A stretch of DNA of 64,000 bases. It comes from a virus. Lineage: Duplodnaviria; Caudoviricetes. A program made the position numbers and the translations under genes. Location of the stretch: the IMG/VR virus record IMGVR_UViG_3300032116_022045; one strand, given 5' to 3'. Positions within the stretch are counted from its first letter, which is position 1, and every line of letters begins with the position of its first letter. Under the pieces are notes generated by a model. It was given only the letters and a program-made list of their open reading frames with translations, had not been told where the DNA came from and ran no database searches. Shown piece after piece: positions 36,161 to 59,722 of this stretch.

Positions 36161-36281
36161 CTTTTGAATTAAAAAATGGATTCAGCAAATTTTAAAAAAT
36201 TACATTGGACGTAAAAAAAACCATTTTGTTTCAAAAAAAAAAAAATAACTTTTTAATAAAGATAACATATTTATTTGTAAA

Positions 36282-36365
36282 ATGAAAAACTATTCTAACA
36301 TATTTGACTTCGCATTTTTTGCTGGTGAGGAAGATTTAAACCTCATAATGGTCAAGTTTTGTTAA
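36282..36365 (+). CDS. Attenuator leader peptide MKNYSNIFDFAFFAGEEDLNLIMVKFC
   Basis: 27-codon ORF overlapping alternative hairpins upstream of the tRNA Phe/Asp/Glu/Ala cluster. Confidence 0.75.
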   Translation: MKNYSNIFDFAFFAGEEDLNLIMVKFC

Positions 36366-36385
36366 TTTTTATTAAATAATCATAT

Positions 36386-36425
36386 AAAAAACCTTGACCA
36401 TTAAAAAGTCAAGGTTTTTTTATTT
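36386..36425 (+). terminator. Attenuator terminator (3:4 hairpin)
   Basis: AAAAAACCTTGAC-CATTAAAAA-GTCAAGGTTTTTT followed by TATTT, immediately before tRNA-Phe. Confidence 0.85.
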
Positions 36426-36498
36426 GGTATGATAGCTCCAATGGTAGAGCGCAAGTTTGAAGAACTTGGCGTTGGTGGTTCGAATCCACCTCATACCA
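36426..36498 (+). tRNA. trnF: tRNA-Phe(GAA)
   Basis: Cloverleaf; CAAGT-TTGAAGA-ACTTG. Confidence 0.93.
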
Positions 36499-36503
36499 CA
36501 AAA

Positions 36504-36575
36504 GGACTCATGGTCTAAAGGTTATGATACTTGACTGTCTATCAAGTGATTGGGGTTCGATTCCCCATGGGTTCG
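36504..36575 (+). tRNA. trnD: tRNA-Asp(GTC)
   Basis: Cloverleaf; CTTGA-CTGTCTA-TCAAG. Confidence 0.92.
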
Positions 36576-36593
36576 CAAAAAAAAAAATAATAT

Positions 36594-36666
36594 CGCACAT
36601 TCGTCTAGTGGACTAGGACATCTCCCTTTCACGGAGAAGACACGGTTTCGAATACCGTATGTGTGA
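36594..36666 (+). tRNA. trnE: tRNA-Glu(TTC)
   Basis: Cloverleaf; TCTCC-CTTTCAC-GGAGA. Confidence 0.92.
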
Positions 36667-36671
36667 CAAAT

Positions 36672-36745
36672 GGGGGCACATGTTCCAAGGCTGGCGAAAA
36701 TGATTTGCAATCAATTTGTGAAGAGTTCAATTCTCTTTGTCTCCA
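36672..36745 (+). tRNA. trnA: tRNA-Ala(TGC) with an atypical D arm
   Basis: Anticodon loop TTTGCAA; G3:U70 Ala identity pair in GGGGGCA/TGTCTCC. Confidence 0.8.
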
Positions 36746-36809
36746 CTTTTTTTGTTTAGTTGTTTTATTTTATAGTATATTTGTAATATAATTAAAACAG
36801 AATGTTAAT

Positions 36810-37472
36810 ATGGGATATAGAACATATATAGCGTCAATGCCGAAAAGAGAATATAATAAAATAAAATCAATGTCTGAAGAAGAATTGATTGAATTTTATA
36901 ATATAGAAAAAGAAGAAAATGGTTTTTGGTATAAAGGTGTATATGAATTTGGTGAAGAACTTTATGAATTTGGTAAATTTACTGATTTTAATATACCAAA
37001 AAAATTTATTAAACCTTTTTTTAAAAATGAAAAGTTAATGTTAAAATATAACGAGTATGACTTTTTTACAATTAAAAAAGAAGTTCTTGAATTGATAATA
37101 AACCATTATCAAGAAAAAATAAAAAAATATTATAATGAAATGGTTAACCCAATTTTTGGCCTAGATAATTCTGGTAACCAAATAGAATCAAATTTATTAG
37201 ATTCAATTAAAATTAAATATACTCACCCAGATAATGATTATCTGTTTGATTTATCAAACATAACCCAAAAAAAACAAAATGCTTTATATAATATGATTAA
37301 CCATGTTAAACGTATGCAAATAGAATGGGTAGATTTAACACCGTTTGATTTAAATGATGGTAAACAAATAATCACAAATTCTTGGAAATATGAATATGGT
37401 ATATTTGAACTAGTTAGAATATACAAATCTTTTGATTGGAAAAAAAATTTAATGTTCTACTATGGATACTAA
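36810..37472 (+). CDS. Hypothetical protein
   Basis: ORF track; host-type promoter upstream. Confidence 0.75.
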   Translation: MGYRTYIASMPKREYNKIKSMSEEELIEFYNIEKEENGFWYKGVYEFGEELYEFGKFTDFNIPKKFIKPFFKNEKLMLKYNEYDFFTIKKEVLELIINHYQEKIKKYYNEMVNPIFGLDNSGNQIESNLLDSIKIKYTHPDNDYLFDLSNITQKKQNALYNMINHVKRMQIEWVDLTPFDLNDGKQIITNSWKYEYGIFELVRIYKSFDWKKNLMFYYGY

Positions 37473-37530
37473 TATATAACTTATTTAATCAATAAAACTA
37501 TATATTTATATATGAAATCTTAATTTAATT

Positions 37531-38034
37531 ATGAATAAACAAATAATATTAGAAACCATTCGTAAAGAATTTTTAATTAAAGAAAATTCAAAATACGATA
37601 ACTATAAAAAAAATTGGAACTACGCTGGAAATTCTTATACTGACTTAACTATCGAAGAACCACTGAAAATTAAAACATGGACCTTCCCAAATCAAAATGG
37701 CTTCTATTTAGAATTTTTTTTTAATAATACCTTAATAGGTCATTATCACTCATTTTATGACCAAGATGATGGTTTTATGAATGATATGGAAATAAAAGAT
37801 GATTACCAAAATAAAGGTTTCGGCAAAATATTACTTTTGTCAGCAATAGATGTTGGTAATAATTATATGGGCTTCTTCTCATCTGATACTAGATGGTTAG
37901 CACCAAATCAATCTAAAATCTATATCTACCTAAAAAAAGAAAATATAATATCTGATAATGACGAAATTATTGATTATGATAAAGCTAATAAACTAATCTC
38001 AATAATAACTGAAAAAAACTTGACTTCTAAATAA
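37531..38034 (+). CDS. GNAT acetyltransferase with an N-terminal ILE...LIKE leader
   Basis: DDYQNKGFGKILL motif; ATATTTAT late-type motif at about 37500. Confidence 0.7.
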   Translation: MNKQIILETIRKEFLIKENSKYDNYKKNWNYAGNSYTDLTIEEPLKIKTWTFPNQNGFYLEFFFNNTLIGHYHSFYDQDDGFMNDMEIKDDYQNKGFGKILLLSAIDVGNNYMGFFSSDTRWLAPNQSKIYIYLKKENIISDNDEIIDYDKANKLISIITEKNLTSK

Positions 38035-38058
38035 TTATTTAGTATATTTGTATTATAT

Positions 38059-38875
38059 TGCGGAAGAGTGAAACGGATAATCATTCAAGGCTCATACAGT
38101 TTTAAAATACTGAGAAATATTCGAACCAATAATAAAATTTAACTATTAGGTTCGTTTTTATTATTTTCACATATTTATTAATATGGGAAAGTATAATAAA
38201 GAAGAATTAGAAAAATTAATTTTAGAAGAGAATAAGAGTTATTCCGCTATAGGTAGATTGTACAATGTTTCTGGTGGTGCAATTAAAAAAGTTGCTAAGA
38301 AATATGGTATTCCATTACCAAGACGAAGAAAAGTTAATGAAAATGAAGTGTTTAGTCGTAAAGGCTATCGAAGTAACAGTTTAGTTAATAAAGTTAACGA
38401 CACTGAATTCATTTCAATAATAAAAGAGTCTAAACAATGGGTTGATGTGGCAGATAAATTAGGATATAAAAACTATTTATCTAATAACATCAAAGATTCA
38501 ATTAGAAATAGGTGCTCGATGTTAGGTATAGAGCTAAATTTAGTCCAAAGACTAGGTATTTCTGATTTAACAAAAGGTGAACTTTTTAATCATCGTAAGA
38601 ATTGGCAATCAGCAAGGTCGGCAATTCAAAAAGATGCTAGAAAGGTTTATTTCGAATCTAATACAACACCAAGTTGTGCAATCTGTGGTTATTCAAACCA
38701 TGTTGAAGTGGCTCACATTAAATCTGTGTCAGAGTTTAATGTAAGTACACCGATAGTAGTAATAAATTTGTTATCAAATCTCATAGGATTATGCCCTAAC
38801 CATCATTGGGAATATGATAACGGATTCTTGGAATTATAACCTTAGAGATAGTGGGTTCAACTCCCACATCCGCTA
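38059..38875 (+). tRNA. tRNA-Met(CAT), interrupted in the anticodon loop by a 742-nt HNH insertion
   Basis: 5' half 38059-38096 ends CAAGG-CTCATA; 3' half 38839-38875 reads A-CCTTA...GTGGG-TTCAACT-CCCAC-ATCCGCTA. Confidence 0.85.
38183..38839 (+). CDS. HNH homing endonuclease with N-terminal HTH-like repeats
   Basis: CAICGYSNHVEVAHIK...NLIGLCPNHHWEYD. Confidence 0.88.
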   Translation: MGKYNKEELEKLILEENKSYSAIGRLYNVSGGAIKKVAKKYGIPLPRRRKVNENEVFSRKGYRSNSLVNKVNDTEFISIIKESKQWVDVADKLGYKNYLSNNIKDSIRNRCSMLGIELNLVQRLGISDLTKGELFNHRKNWQSARSAIQKDARKVYFESNTTPSCAICGYSNHVEVAHIKSVSEFNVSTPIVVINLLSNLIGLCPNHHWEYDNGFLEL

Positions 38876-39868
38876 CTTTTTTAATATCCCCTTAATTACA
38901 TCAACTTCATTATCACTTACCTCGTAAACACTACTGTTTATATCATCCTCACTTAGTAAGTTGTATTCCCTAATATAATAGTCTTGACCTTTAGATAATA
39001 ACATATCTTCACAACTAGTATACCTATCAAAATCACCACTAATGTTATCTAATACCCTTAAATAACCATCCTTACCATCCAACTTAACGCAATCAATTAT
39101 TACACCATCGTTATTTAATATTATTTTATATATAACACATAAATGTAAAATAATGTCAGAAACATCATTATCACCAATATAATTAATATTACTTATATTA
39201 CGATAACCAAACTTATTAAAACTATCATATAACTCTTTAATGTGTCTCTCTAAACTATAATATTTAGGACTTATCTTATTATTTAATAAATAATCTAATT
39301 GATAACTATCATAATTTATGGCAATACAACTAAGTAATCTACCAGATGTTTTATATTCATTAATATTACTAAATTTAATGTAATAACTATCTTTAATCTT
39401 AATTAAATCATCCCAAATATTAACCATATCTTCTATTTTATCATGACTTTTTTCACCTAATTCATCTTCCTCTTTTAAATATAATACTAATACTGGTATC
39501 TTAGCTTGACCTAAATTACTAGCCGCTATAACCCTATGACGACCCTCTTGCGTCTTCTCAACATAATTTAAATAAGGTATGTCATACTTAATGCCTCTAG
39601 ACATATTATACTCAATCTTGTTAATGTTACCAATCAATAAAGGTTCCTTCTGACTATAAACATCAGTACCTGCTATCTTGGCACACTCCCTGAAATATTC
39701 CTCACCACTCATAAACTTAATCTCACCAACCCAATTATCATACTTCTTAGGTAATCTATTATTTAAACCAAATAATATTGCATCGTAATCTGGTATATTA
39801 CTCCTATCCTTAAAATATCCGTAATCTATACTCTCCCTTAATAACTCTTCGTAAATATTACCTATCAT
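38873..39868 (-). CDS. ParB/Srx-like N-terminal domain protein
   Basis: EGRHRVIAA motif. Confidence 0.55.
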   Translation of the reverse strand: MIGNIYEELLRESIDYGYFKDRSNIPDYDAILFGLNNRLPKKYDNWVGEIKFMSGEEYFRECAKIAGTDVYSQKEPLLIGNINKIEYNMSRGIKYDIPYLNYVEKTQEGRHRVIAASNLGQAKIPVLVLYLKEEDELGEKSHDKIEDMVNIWDDLIKIKDSYYIKFSNINEYKTSGRLLSCIAINYDSYQLDYLLNNKISPKYYSLERHIKELYDSFNKFGYRNISNINYIGDNDVSDIILHLCVIYKIILNNDGVIIDCVKLDGKDGYLRVLDNISGDFDRYTSCEDMLLSKGQDYYIREYNLLSEDDINSSVYEVSDNEVDVIKGILKK

Positions 39869-43333: not shown

Positions 43334-43879
43334 ACATTGTAAAGATACAAGGAATATTTGACACCACCAAATAAAATGTAAAAAAAATAACAGATATTCT
43401 ATTATTTTTTTTAGGTTATTTGGATTAAAAATTAATTAGAATTTAGATAGTTCCCAAATTACTAATCCAATGATTCCGATAACACCGAATGATATTGACA
43501 ATAAGACGATGTTTTTTTCAAGTTTGTTTTCCATTGTTGTTATATTAAAGTGTGTGATTGATTTATTTTTTGAAATAGGCAAAATAACTCATAATGATAC
43601 AAGCAATTAATTCTATGACCCCTATTGACAGGATTACAGGTTCATTAAACCCAAATAGGTATAAATGATTGATTAATACGATTAGTAAATAAACACCTAT
43701 AATTGGTGCTACAATACCGACAGAAGTTAAAATACTTTTAATGTTTTTCATGATGTTGTTTTTTGTTTGACTATACAAAGATAAAACAAATATTTGATAT
43801 ATCCAAATAAAATAAAAAAAACCCCATCTTTTTACAGACAGGGTTTCTCGTTCACAACTTAACCAAAAAAAAAATTAGC

Positions 43880-43967
43880 AGTCAGGACAGGATTCGAACC
43901 TATTAGGAGTTATTGACTATTACCTCCACCGCTCACTCGGTGCGTCTACCAATTCCGCCACCTGACC
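43880..43967 (-). ncRNA. tRNA-framed RNA T1 (88 nt; Leu-like D arm, non-canonical anticodon arm)
   Basis: GGTCAGG-TG-GCGGAATTGGTAGACGC...AGGTTCGAATCCTGT-CCTGACT. Confidence 0.8.
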
Positions 43968-44119
43968 ATTTTATTTACAATACAAAGATAAAACAAATAT
44001 TTGATATATCCAAATAAAAAATAAAAAAAACCCCATCTTTTTACAGACAGGGTTTAACCTTAAAATTATTAAACTTAAAACATAATACAAAGATACAACA
44101 AATATTTGATATAATCAAA

Positions 44120-44896
44120 TTATTTGTTATAAATTTTTAATAGTTTATTAAAAATACCTTCTTCGCTTAAATGAGTTAAGTCAATACCATTTGTTGCTTC
44201 AATTGATAGGTTTTTATACATTTTACTATGTTCATACCTAATACCAATAGTAAGCATAAGACGCATAAACATTTGATTCACTTGTCTTGTAGGGGGTAAA
44301 AATCTGTGAACATCAACAAGGCAATTAAGTAAAAATTCAGCCCTTTCCCTATCTTTTATTACAAAATCACCTTTTTTAACAATTCTAACAGCAGTAGTTC
44401 TACGTTTAACTTGTAGGTAAGCCATTGGGATAACAGACGATTGAATGTGATTTCTGTAAATGTGTTTAATTGAGTTTTGAAGCGTGAAATAATCTTTATT
44501 TCCTGTTTCTTTCCAACTATTGATAAAATCATCGAATGACCATTTTTTCCCTGTGTTATTTGTATCAATCATTAATTGTACAATTTCAGTATCTGTTTTA
44601 CATTCAACAATACGACATTCAATAGGTAAATTAAGGCTTACCATTGCTCTAATTAAATGTTGTCCATCAACAACATACAATTTATTATTAGGTTTTCTAA
44701 CTAATAAAACTTGTCTTGTTTGTCCGTTTCTTTTTACCGATTCAACTAACTCTAAAACAATCTTTTGGTTAATAGGTCTGTTAAAAGGTAAGATTAACAA
44801 TGAAGCATAATCATTAACTCCAATTGTAATTGTCTTGTTTGTTTTTACTTTGTTTTTCATGTTTCTTTTTCCTTTAAGTGTTAAACAATGGGTCAA
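44120..44896 (-). CDS. ParB/Srx-like domain protein
   Basis: LYVVDGQHL motif. Confidence 0.65.
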   Translation of the reverse strand: MTHCLTLKGKRNMKNKVKTNKTITIGVNDYASLLILPFNRPINQKIVLELVESVKRNGQTRQVLLVRKPNNKLYVVDGQHLIRAMVSLNLPIECRIVECKTDTEIVQLMIDTNNTGKKWSFDDFINSWKETGNKDYFTLQNSIKHIYRNHIQSSVIPMAYLQVKRRTTAVRIVKKGDFVIKDRERAEFLLNCLVDVHRFLPPTRQVNQMFMRLMLTIGIRYEHSKMYKNLSIEATNGIDLTHLSEEGIFNKLLKIYNK

Positions 44897-45026
44897 AGTA
44901 ACTACTTTTTATTGAGAAAAACAAATTTTTGTTTAAATTTTTTTAAAAAAAATTAAATAAAAAAAAACCCCATCTTTTTACAGATAGGGTTTCTCGTTCA
45001 CAACTTAACCAAAAAAAAAAATTAGC

Positions 45027-45125
45027 AGTCAGGACAGGATTCGAACCTGTGGTAGTTAGATATTGATATCACCCTATCATCTAACCACTTCTTAGGTGAA
45101 GCAGATACCATTCCGCCACCTGACT
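45027..45125 (-). ncRNA. tRNA-framed RNA T2 (99 nt)
   Basis: Same acceptor and T arm; long variable hairpin GGTTAGAT/ATCTAACT. Confidence 0.8.
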
Positions 45126-45136
45126 ATTTTAATAAC

Positions 45137-45245
45137 TTGGACGTGCTACCCATTACACCAACCTTGGGATTCGAACCCATATCTTCGGTACAACCGACGC
45201 ATTACCCATTATGCTATCACCGAGAATCGAACTCGGACTTTCCAT
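45137..45245 (-). ncRNA. Double-elbow tRNA-like RNA (T arm, D arm, anticodon-like arm, T arm, D arm; no acceptor stem)
   Basis: See findings. Confidence 0.65.
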
Positions 45246-45249
45246 TCGT

Positions 45250-45323
45250 AGTCAGGACAGGATTCGAACCTGTAAATGAATCAGACTAATGCAGACTCTG
45301 CGATACCATTACGCCACCTGACC
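45250..45323 (-). ncRNA. tRNA-framed RNA T4 (74 nt)
   Basis: Same acceptor and T arm; irregular anticodon arm. Confidence 0.8.
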
Positions 45324-58476: not shown

Positions 58477-58490
58477 AATTTGTTTTTAGT

Positions 58491-58561
58491 AGTCAGGACA
58501 GGATTCGAACCTGTGCATTCATTGATATCATCTCATTGCTCTACCACTGAGCTACCTGACT
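58491..58561 (-). ncRNA. tRNA-framed RNA T6 (71 nt; defective anticodon stem)
   Basis: AGTCAGG-TA-GCTCAGTGGTAGAGC...ACAGGTTCGAATCCTGT-CCTGACT. Confidence 0.8.
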
Positions 58562-58565
58562 GATT

Positions 58566-58655
58566 GAGGATGAGAAGTCCTCCGTGTTGTAGAAGATTAC
58601 ACATCTATTCTTCTCTTTGCATTCCAGTTTCATTCCTTTCTCAAGGGAACAACAC
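58566..58655 (-). ncRNA. Companion structured RNA K1 (kissing-loop candidate)
   Basis: GTGTTG/CAACAC; TTCC-CTTGAGAAA-GGAA; GAGGA-CTTCTCA-TCCTC. Confidence 0.65.
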
Positions 58656-58659
58656 AAGT

Positions 58660-58786
58660 AGTCAGGACAGGATTCGAACCTGTATAAAAGACAAGCAGTT
58701 AGCCCTCACGATTGTAAGAGGGTTAGGGATTATGTCTATTCCCACATTTAACATACCACTGCGTATACCAATTCCGCCACCTGACT
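58660..58786 (-). ncRNA. tRNA-framed RNA T7 (127 nt)
   Basis: Same frame; the insert has two hairpins. Confidence 0.8.
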
Positions 58787-58790
58787 ATTT

Positions 58791-58872
58791 GAGGATGAGA
58801 AGTCCTCTGTGTTGTAGGGTTTCCTCCATTTGCCCTATATGGTATTAAATTCCTTTCTCAAGGGAACAACAC
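58791..58872 (-). ncRNA. Companion structured RNA K2
   Basis: Same ends as K1, different middle. Confidence 0.65.
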
Positions 58873-58906
58873 ATTTCTCAACCATCCACCTGATGAATGA
58901 TTGATA

Positions 58907-59296
58907 TTACTTTTTATCTAAGTCAAAATAATACTCATCTTCTTCTTGCCTATACCACGCACCCGTACACGCATCAACAATCAAACTCGGTAAGCCAAAA
59001 AAGTTTACATAAGGCACAAAACACATCCCGATATTGCCAATCAAATACCCTGGACGAATCTGTCTTTGCGTCTTAATTTGAGCATTCTCATACCCTTCCG
59101 CCTTGACAATGATAGTGTTACGCTTCTTTACAGGAACTTCAGCAGTACAACTTCCCTCTCCTACCTTGTTCCCATTCACATAAACTTTAGCATGGTCAGG
59201 TTTTACATTGATAGTTACTTCCTGCTTCATGCTTGAAGTAATTGTGGCACAGCTTGTTAATAAAGCTAATGCAATAATAGCAAAAATACTTTTCAT
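58907..59296 (-). CDS. PEGA-domain lipoprotein
   Basis: Lipobox LLTSC; VKPDHAKVYVNG and VKAEGY. Confidence 0.75.
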   Translation of the reverse strand: MKSIFAIIALALLTSCATITSSMKQEVTINVKPDHAKVYVNGNKVGEGSCTAEVPVKKRNTIIVKAEGYENAQIKTQRQIRPGYLIGNIGMCFVPYVNFFGLPSLIVDACTGAWYRQEEDEYYFDLDKK

Positions 59297-59603
59297 TTTT
59301 TGTTTTAATTAAAGTGTTAATACTGATTAGCATCGGGTTTTTAAAACCTCAATTTCTTTTTGAATTCTTGTAACTTCAGAATCCGTGAGTTTTACTCTAC
59401 TATCTGTACTTTTACCAGAATCATCTTTAATAGATACTCTTTTAAATCCAGATTGTAACTGATTTTCTAAACGCTCGATTACTCTTTTGCGTCTTGCCTG
59501 TGCAGGCTTTGTCATTGAATGATTTACTCCATTATGTTTTCTCATAACTTTATAGTAATAAAAATTGTTTCTACACTTCTAGGTAGTAGAATTCACCTAT
59601 AGC

Positions 59604-59722
59604 AGTCAGAACAGGATTCGAACCTGTAGTGTAGGGAGTGGAGACCTTCCAACTTTATTATTATAACCTCCACATTCTGTTTTTTTGTTGCCCCATAGCG
59701 TCTACCATTCCGCCACCTGACT
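59604..59722 (-). ncRNA. tRNA-framed RNA T8 (119 nt)
   Basis: Same frame with one G:U variant. Confidence 0.8.

Follow-up and report, generated by a model that had tools for sequence, protein, structure and literature searches.

A mobile HNH homing cassette without a ribozyme inside the anticodon of a phage tRNA-Met gene

Results

An HNH cassette interrupts a tRNA-Met gene

The DNA studied here, referred to as the window, is a stretch of 64,000 nucleotides (nt) of the viral record IMGVR_UViG_3300032116_022045 (Duplodnaviria; Caudoviricetes). At 38059-38875 of its plus strand a tRNA-Met(CAU) gene is interrupted by 742 nt with ATA on both sides, as a first-pass annotation made from the letters alone had reported. 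The insert is composed of an 89-nt leader with three local hairpins, followed by a 218-codon HNH_2 gene. Comparison with related sequences allowed us to conclude with confidence that this cassette is a mobile HNH homing element, devoid of a ribozyme, that occupies position 34/35 of the tRNA.

The open reading frame (ORF) of the cassette matched Pfam HNH_2 (PF13391) with an E value of 4e-7 and also HNH families of PHROG. At E<=1e-3 its protein had 653 homologues, many of them on phage contigs of 100-400 kb. The invariant HNH residues are C165, C168, H178, C204, N206, H207 and H208, and the pattern C-x2-C ... H ... CPNHHW was invariant in 23 homologues. Related loci were fetched through identical-protein look-ups and through scans of IMG/VR, of metagenomes of the Joint Genome Institute (JGI) and of GTDB genomes. 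All close relatives (identity 55-80%) were located between two tRNA-Met halves of the initiator-like type; they amount to about 22 distinct sequences and come from rumen, pig gut and lakes, both Antarctic and temperate. A 1:72 mismatch and A11:U24 characterize these tRNAs, compensatory changes distinguish their stems from locus to locus, and in most of them the initiator-like cloverleaf is perfect once the insert is removed. The tRNA halves of the window are not a chance resemblance, because about 22 relatives have the same layout and because both an intact orthologous locus and an intact lake allele exist.

More distant HNH relatives were found free-standing beside an intact tRNA-Met, or in the order 5' half, HNH gene and intact tRNA. 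In L036 (about 1300-2200), L180 and L044 a tRNA-Met 5' half that ends at C34 is followed by leader, HNH gene and a complete, different tRNA-Met, the HNH frame of L036 terminating within the D arm of the intact tRNA. These loci suggest that 5' half, leader and HNH gene may be able to move as a single unit. Group I introns of bacterial tRNA-Arg(CCU) genes, which Rfam does recognize, contain further relatives in antisense orientation. In L018 (1409-2047), compared with L154, a single in-frame TGA replaces an invariant Arg codon; the rest of the HNH frame is full-length, and the tRNA halves and leader are intact. This gene is either a young pseudogene or has a recoded stop.

The phage GenBank collection gave no DNA match, and at the protein level only weak HNH-domain matches; for this reason the cassette is regarded as having no cultured relative there. 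A search of IMG/VR for the exact tRNA halves found none, and a neighbour-protein search in the same database gave no usable match. The junction pattern returned six true elements and one chance match (GC-rich contig L150) from IMG/VR, whereas only two known elements were real among the 73 matches to the leader motif in a search for ORF-less derivatives. Solved structures provided only a weak HNH-domain match, to TagI, and full-text literature searches found no description of this tRNA-Met HNH family.

The junction lies between C34 and A35

In the window alone, the ATA on both flanks permits four junction registers: the 5' half ends at 38093 or 38096 and the 3' half begins at 38836 or 38839. 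The annotation had accordingly placed the junction somewhere between 34/35 and 37/38. This ambiguity is genuine in the window, but it was removed by the relatives, which exclude 37/38. Their 5'-side sequence is CTCACAC (L004) or CTCTTAC (L019, L152, L163), and the 3' side of the insert is always ATAACC or ATAAGC. As only a C34/A35 junction restores CAU in all relatives, including those with variant 5' sides, the junction was assigned to 34/35. It follows that the 5' ATA is part of the insert. The argument that the annotation had drawn from 37/38 as the canonical position of protein-spliced tRNA introns is therefore lost; in addition, a bulge-helix-bulge (BHB) motif and, in three related records, a splicing endonuclease are absent.

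The base at -1 is C34 in every relative. The last insert base is U in the family and A in L018 and L154, and in the window it is not G in any register. The distance of about 85 nt to the ATG noted previously agrees with the 86-89 nt found here. The HNH stop codon, which had been described as abutting the 3' half, does adjoin it but does more than that: TAA (38837-38839) is U36-A37-A38 of the tRNA itself.

The cassette is exchanged between tRNA-Met genes

Downstream of the tRNA the window carries a 331-codon ORF on the minus strand, a 58%-identical orthologue of which is present in L233 and L234. Beside this neighbour gene, in the same convergent and slightly overlapping position, both loci have an intact tRNA-Met, and because of the orthologous position they were taken to represent the empty site. 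An uninterrupted allele was also present in run X10, from a lake of the same type as that of the window phage, on a 154-nt DNA contig that shares 31/32 nt with the 3' half of the window; its depth was about 4x that of the window phage. The comparison with intact alleles that the annotation had called for thus had a positive outcome in both places.

In three syntenic pairs the block of tRNA and HNH gene was better conserved than the sequence on either side: L007/L009 had 99.4% in the block and 95.6% in the flanks, L168/L170 98.3% and 87-92%, and window/L232 about 100% and about 95%. Two unrelated leader types, A (that of the window) and B, combine freely with two exon types. In the window a type-A leader is found in exons with an odd D arm, which elsewhere carry type-B leaders; this exon type recurs in L020 and L173 and in the intact X10 allele. 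The latter has the distal 3' exon of the window and a different, internally compensated anticodon stem, whereas the anticodon stem of the window is that of type-A donors. This difference is co-conversion-like, i.e. it has the pattern that would be expected from co-conversion beside the insertion site.

The HNH homing element thus shows presence/absence polymorphism at a precise site together with signs of lateral spread. The annotation had left the choice between protein splicing and a homing insertion that killed the tRNA. Its homing part is upheld by the empty site, the cassettes that differ less than their flanks, the reassortment and the co-conversion-like stem.

Layout of the locus and state of the tRNA

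The features of the locus are listed in Table 1. With the insert present, neither ARAGORN nor Rfam called the tRNA in place. After removal of the insert in silico, ARAGORN called tRNA-Met(CAU) in the window copy only at a lowered threshold; its default threshold sufficed when 38868 was T. This position is A in the window, which gives an A.A mismatch in the acceptor stem, and T in the 95%-identical strain L232 and in the main contig of lake run X10. A T here restores a Watson-Crick pair, so the window copy carries a stem-breaking variant. The window copy also has C27.A43. The two halves had been described as well paired, which, in view of these two positions, holds only in part for the window copy. 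The 5' exon has an unusual D arm (GTGA / AACGGATAA / TCAT, with G8) that defines the odd subtype, and the T arm of the 3' exon is GTGGG/TTCAACT/CCCAC. The T-run behind the acceptor stem is convergent with the 331-codon ORF (38873-39868, minus strand).

Table 1. Features of the interrupted tRNA-Met locus in the window.
Feature	Position	Strand	Basis and remarks
Sigma-70-like promoter, TTGACT-17 nt-TATATT	38020..38048	+	Consensus scan, 10/12 matches; predicted function; ~10 nt 5' of tRNA start
tRNA-Met 5' exon: acceptor 5' strand, D arm, anticodon-stem 5' strand, C32-U33-C34	38059..38093	+	
Insert: mobile HNH cassette, 742 nt, between C34 and A35	38094..38835	+	Comparison with relatives
Hairpin 1, CAGU / 8-nt loop / ACUG	38097..38112	+	Minimum free energy fold; RNAalifold; 3 nt from 5' junction
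Hairpin 2, CGAACC ... GGUUCG, then UUUUU; terminator-like; both arms resemble the tRNA T-loop box	38122..38159	+	Fold
Hairpin 3, pairs with ATG (38183-38185), contains conserved CATATTTAT motif (38170-38178)	38162..38193	+	Fold
HNH homing-endonuclease gene, 218 codons; N-terminal helix-turn-helix-like modules and C-terminal HNH_2 domain	38183..38839	+	Pfam, PHROG
tRNA-Met 3' exon: A35-U36-A37-A38, anticodon-stem 3' strand, variable loop, T arm, acceptor 3' strand	38836..38875	+	
T-run after acceptor stem, predicted possible transcript end	38876..38882	+	Read from sequence

The insert has no recognizable ribozyme or BHB

Group I introns have a P3-P9 core, a U (rarely C) at -1 that is paired in P1, a terminal G and about 200 nt or more of structured RNA that lies beside the ORF or has the ORF looped out of it. 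The annotation had stated that the insert offers no room for a ribozyme core and does not end in G. Both statements agree with what is seen across the family, in which a U at -1 is absent as well: omega-G was missing from about 25 family sequences, which have C at -1 and a final U or A. The non-coding part of the insert amounts to 86-101 nt in the relatives, with 0-12 nt after the ORF; a small core that overlaps the two ends of the ORF, where synonymous sites are unusually conserved, is nevertheless conceivable. Rfam detected no intron or ribozyme family in the whole window at the gathering threshold, nor in 37900-39000 at E<=10, and RF00028 had no match in six related loci at E<=0.1. In a control, tRNA-Arg loci with an internal HNH ORF scored RF00028 with E values of 1e-4 to 5e-9. 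The Rfam negative is weak evidence, since a probable group I intron in the tRNA-Leu of G003 escapes Rfam as well. No P1/guide pairing was consistent across the relatives, and RNAalifold yielded only the four tRNA stems and local hairpins, no long-range helix. Candidate pairings (P1/guide, leader to T arm, leader to 3' end of the ORF) were complementary in some sequences and were rejected as they did not covary.

The tRNA-Leu(UAA) gene of G003 (G003:C1:344678-345543; locus L255:4678-5543, minus strand) is likewise interrupted at 34/35, here by 781 nt. This insert contains an HNH gene of 164 codons, is preceded by U at -1, ends in omega-G and has about 200 nt of non-coding RNA on its 3' side; the ACTATTTAT motif recurs in the leader of its HNH gene. 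Judged by these features the insert is probably a group I intron, although it had no Rfam match at E<=10.

A BHB could not be drawn, as judged by inspection and RNAalifold, the 3' end of the insert (…GGAAUU) having no loop or stem complement for a 4-bp central helix. EndA (PF01974) was found in none of G001, G002 and the complete G003; a control search recovered four archaea. The search for a ligase or a splicing endonuclease that had been proposed was thus successful for the former (RtcB and Rnl genes in G003 and G001) and negative for EndA in these three records. A tRNA-shaped insert, to be excised by RNase P and RNase Z, was also considered and discarded, the ends AUACAGU and …UUGGAAUU not being complementary. 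The T-loop-like boxes of the insert occur in the leader only.

Synonymous sites were unusually conserved in codons 4-24 and 195-213 of the HNH ORF. At 38783-38815 (HNH codons ~201-211) a hairpin is predicted, UAUGCCC/GGGAAUA, with UAACC in its loop and about 30 nt from the 3' junction. Within their AT-rich gene, nearly all type-A in-loop elements spell Cys-Pro-Asn of the HNH motif as TGC CCT AAC; for this type-A codon choice (TGCCCTAACC) type-B elements and free-standing relatives have mixed codons.

Leader hairpins and RNA

Compensatory changes were found by RNAalifold in hairpin 1 of the relatives (CAG/CUG, CGG/CCG, CGGUG/CACCG). The arms of hairpin 2 (ATTCGAAC, GGTTCGTTT) are near-invariant and do not covary. 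The start codon is paired in 11-12/15 relatives, through arms of differing sequence. The late-type motif ascribed previously to the HNH gene is present in hairpin 3, where it is conserved as (A/C)(T/C)ATTTAT; its role as a later promoter is probable.

RNA contigs from two lake metatranscriptomes, libraries that could contain DNA, covered only 38068-38577 within 37600-39300. The contig of run X18 begins at 38068 with no cover upstream and reads through hairpin 2 (38068-38350). One contig extended from exon 1 to the HNH gene without a break, through both the 5' junction and hairpin 2, and was thus unspliced. In both samples the cover sets in no more than 9 nt from the tRNA 5' end, and we read the sampled RNA as a transcript from the tRNA promoter. 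An exon joint and cover of the 3' half were not seen among these contigs, which are few and of low depth and come from a library type that would miss a 75-nt mature tRNA. In the DNA sequencing runs the phage's own locus did not occur in joined form.

Transcription from the tRNA promoter would then run into the cassette, in agreement with the read-in seen in the RNA contigs. Expression of the HNH gene may be damped by the terminator-like hairpin 2 with its U-run, and by hairpin 3, which would mask the start codon; the TATTTAT motif would act later. More speculatively, the T-loop-like leader hairpin could imitate the homing site and serve as an operator, in the manner of I-TevI.

Fate of the tRNA

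We consider it an evenly balanced judgement that the tRNA is not restored in most carriers, and that the cassette is a ribozyme-less selfish disruption which persists by repeated homing. The HNH enzyme would cut the intact tRNA-Met genes of co-infecting phages, and repair would copy the cassette in, an insertion that would remove the enzyme's own target. The comparison of loci shows that the cassette moves at the DNA level: it passes between diverged tRNA-Met genes and takes a few flanking exon bases with it. The RNA would not splice itself, the interrupted gene would yield no working tRNA in most carriers, and the element would persist as long as homing into fresh intact alleles outpaces the decay of the halves. 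Degenerate halves in relatives, which the annotation had named among the outcomes that would speak against it, were found in part. Five lineages keep an open HNH frame with truncated or mutated halves (L155, L095, L175, L166 and L043/L182), and in L187 HNH gene and tRNA are both decayed. Smaller tRNA defects are U55C in L160, G5.A68 in L152 and the acceptor mismatch of the window.

Several observations weigh against this reading. The cloverleaf is flawless in about 21 lineages. Variation begins exactly after C34 (AT, AC or TT), as if exon 1 were under tRNA selection. Hairpin 1 covaries at a distance of only 3 nt from the junction, and no role for it in HNH expression is obvious. The last codon may specify L, I or K, yet A35 never changes. 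The 31 tRNAs of the complete 387-kb G003 include no other of the initiator type than the split gene, and carriers encode RNA ligases: RtcB and three Rnl2-like enzymes in G003, Rnl1 and an Rnl2-like enzyme in G001. Synonymous conservation was seen in the first ~20 and last ~20 codons, and the type-A codon choice is absent from free-standing relatives. An element that kills its gene should, moreover, fare less well than this family has done. The RNA data, with their few low-depth and exclusively unspliced contigs, show neither splicing nor its absence. The intact halves, for their part, can neither prove the tRNA dead nor decide the matter, because homing keeps entering fresh functional alleles.

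The same intact halves, the variation that starts at position 35 of the 5' copy, the covarying hairpin beside the junction, the constancy of A35, the single initiator-type gene of G003 and the ligase genes of the carriers would suit a protein-dependent route, which we regard as rather unlikely. An endoribonuclease of host or phage would cut after C34 and before A35 of a pre-tRNA that is a normal cloverleaf with a 742-nt loop, possibly guided by hairpin 1 and the AU-rich junctions, and RtcB, or Rnl1/Rnl2 with a kinase-phosphatase, would reseal the halves, while the HNH protein would be translated from unspliced RNA. Phage RNA ligases mend breaks in anticodon loops. Rfam-unclassifiable tRNA inserts have, moreover, been reported in large phages (10.1101/356790). 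Yet no candidate endonuclease was found, there is no BHB motif, EndA did not turn up in the three related records, and the junctions (5' AUAC, ACAC, UUAC; 3' ...U or ...A) are too variable for a cleavage motif. RNA ligases are common in large phages with or without the element, and hence not specific; in the window, which is part of a genome, neither an RNA ligase nor RtcB was detected among 30 large ORFs. Several lineages keep the HNH gene while the halves decay, and recurrent homing accounts for intact halves equally well.

The raised synonymous conservation at both ends of the ORF could instead reflect a cryptic, reduced self-splicing or self-cleaving RNA of about 200 nt in all, formed by the leader and ~60 nt at each end of the HNH ORF with the middle of the ORF looped out. 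The type-A codon choice and the conserved hairpin near the 3' junction would fit, and so would the bacterial HNH relatives within true group I introns of tRNA-Arg, the existence of group I introns with C at -1 (10.1101/2020.01.27.920355) and the tRNA-Leu intron of G003 that Rfam passes over. We nevertheless hold such an RNA to be improbable. It would have to do without omega-G, a consistent P1/guide pairing or any long-range helix between leader and 3' end; no self-cleaving ribozyme family was matched in Rfam at E<=10; type-B elements use the same junction but share neither leader nor codon choice; and L156 has lost 60 nt of the leader while its exons are still perfect. Even less probable, in our estimation, is that the tRNA frame serves only as a scaffold of the HNH mRNA and that no mature tRNA-Met is made. 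The paired halves would then provide base-paired mRNA ends trimmed by RNase P/RNase Z, stability and a strong promoter. Most lineages retain the halves, two metatranscriptomes sampled RNA that sets in no more than 9 nt from the tRNA 5' end and continues into the HNH gene, but no neighbouring gene, and the same genome has seven tRNA-framed RNAs in which foreign inserts replace the anticodon arm. A mere frame, however, does not need the anticodon stem, U33, C34 and A35-A38, all of which are conserved too; HNH ORFs survive where the halves have decayed, free-standing relatives have no frame, and no RNA contig covered the 3' half.

Other features of the window

ARAGORN reported 'introns' at 58658-58786, 59602-59722 and 43878-45125. 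These were rejected as intron-bearing tRNAs and were recognized as tRNA-framed RNAs. At 43878-45323 and 58489-59722 (minus strand) lie several tRNA-like genes with a common acceptor/T frame, GGTCAGG...CCTGACT, each preceded by a similar promoter and each with an unrelated insert at the position of the anticodon arm. A 258-codon ORF without a Pfam match (44120-44896, minus strand) is situated between two of the tRNA-framed RNA genes and is flanked by repeated promoter-like and terminator-like units.

Strain L232 has, at L232:3637-5120, an OrfB_IS605 TnpB gene (IS200/IS605-type) and a Y1 transposase gene between tRNA-Pro and a GNAT gene. In place of these transposon genes the window has, at 36175-37500, a leader peptide, tRNA-Phe/Asp/Glu/Ala and a 220-codon ORF. 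This looks like a strain-level exchange of a four-tRNA block for an insertion sequence.

Discussion

If the tRNA is simply broken, the family would be a large natural case of gene-drive-like behaviour, in which an element spreads at the cost of a conserved RNA gene that it destroys. Initiator tRNAs that are 'missing' from phage annotations would then also be accounted for, since split genes of this kind are passed over by standard tRNA finders. In textbooks, tRNA introns of bacteria and phages are self-splicing and those of archaea and eukaryotes are spliced by proteins. This division would change if the tRNA is restored: phages would splice a tRNA without a ribozyme, and their RNA ligases would gain a housekeeping role. 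Were the protein route true, no earlier case of tRNA splicing by proteins would be known outside archaea and eukaryotes, and the RNA-repair kit of phages would have a natural use. Either way, the family offers a compact and well-sampled system with hundreds of variants and two leader types.

Comparison with known systems

A tRNA intron with an endonuclease is reportedly known from the cyanobacterial tRNA-fMet, where the enzyme is I-Ssp6803I. For tRNA group I introns 21 classes have been described, all through a covariance-model match and among them tRNA-Arg(CCU), tRNA-Leu(UAA) and tRNA-Ile2 (Williams, 2020; 10.1101/2020.01.27.920355). The present element resembles these introns in that an endonuclease gene is located in an anticodon loop, here of an initiator-type tRNA-Met, and in that empty and filled sites exist; with the introns of tRNA-Leu(UAA) it shares position 34/35, which is classical there. 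It differs from them in having no covariance-model match, omega-G or P1, in the C at -1 and in its mere ~89 nt of non-coding sequence. Unlike in those introns, its ORF reaches the last base of the insert and is closed by a stop codon that the 3' exon supplies.

Protein-spliced tRNA introns and split tRNAs of archaea and eukaryotes rely on a BHB motif, EndA and an RtcB or Trl1 ligase (PMC4090602, PMC3400036). The element has in common with them a ribozyme-free insert in the anticodon loop, and its relatives possess RtcB- and Rnl-type ligases. In contrast to them, its junction is at 34/35 instead of 37/38, a BHB cannot be drawn and EndA is absent from the three related records. We know of no protein tRNA-splicing pathway in bacteria or phages. 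Short, 'enigmatic' unclassified tRNA introns were described in Lak megaphages (Devoto et al., 10.1101/356790). As in the present case these are Rfam-unclassified tRNA inserts in large phages of Bacteroidota-type hosts, and they are highly conserved across cohorts. Unlike the HNH cassette they are short and have no endonuclease gene; their removal is unproven too.

Intron ORFs of T4 have a late promoter and a hairpin in which the ribosome site is masked, and I-TevI represses itself at an operator that mimics its homing site (review PMC2988022). The start codon of the HNH gene likewise lies in a conserved hairpin with a TATTTAT motif, behind an upstream hairpin of T-loop-like boxes, both with predicted roles; the difference is that the T4 ORFs reside in introns and the element around the HNH gene is not a demonstrated one. 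Friedrich et al. are said to have found in 2007 that MobE splits nrdA of Aeromonas phage Aeh1 into a 'gene in pieces'. The cassette is comparable to MobE in its direct insertion into a gene without an intron. The Aeh1 reductase reassembles as a protein, whereas a tRNA that is broken within its anticodon cannot decode unless it is religated. T4 SegB is a free-standing phage homing endonuclease of a tRNA region (PMC2330249). SegB sits between genes, unlike this element; in both cases a phage endonuclease gene targets a tRNA region and spreads in co-infection with co-conversion of the flanks, and distant members of the HNH family are free-standing beside tRNA-Met.

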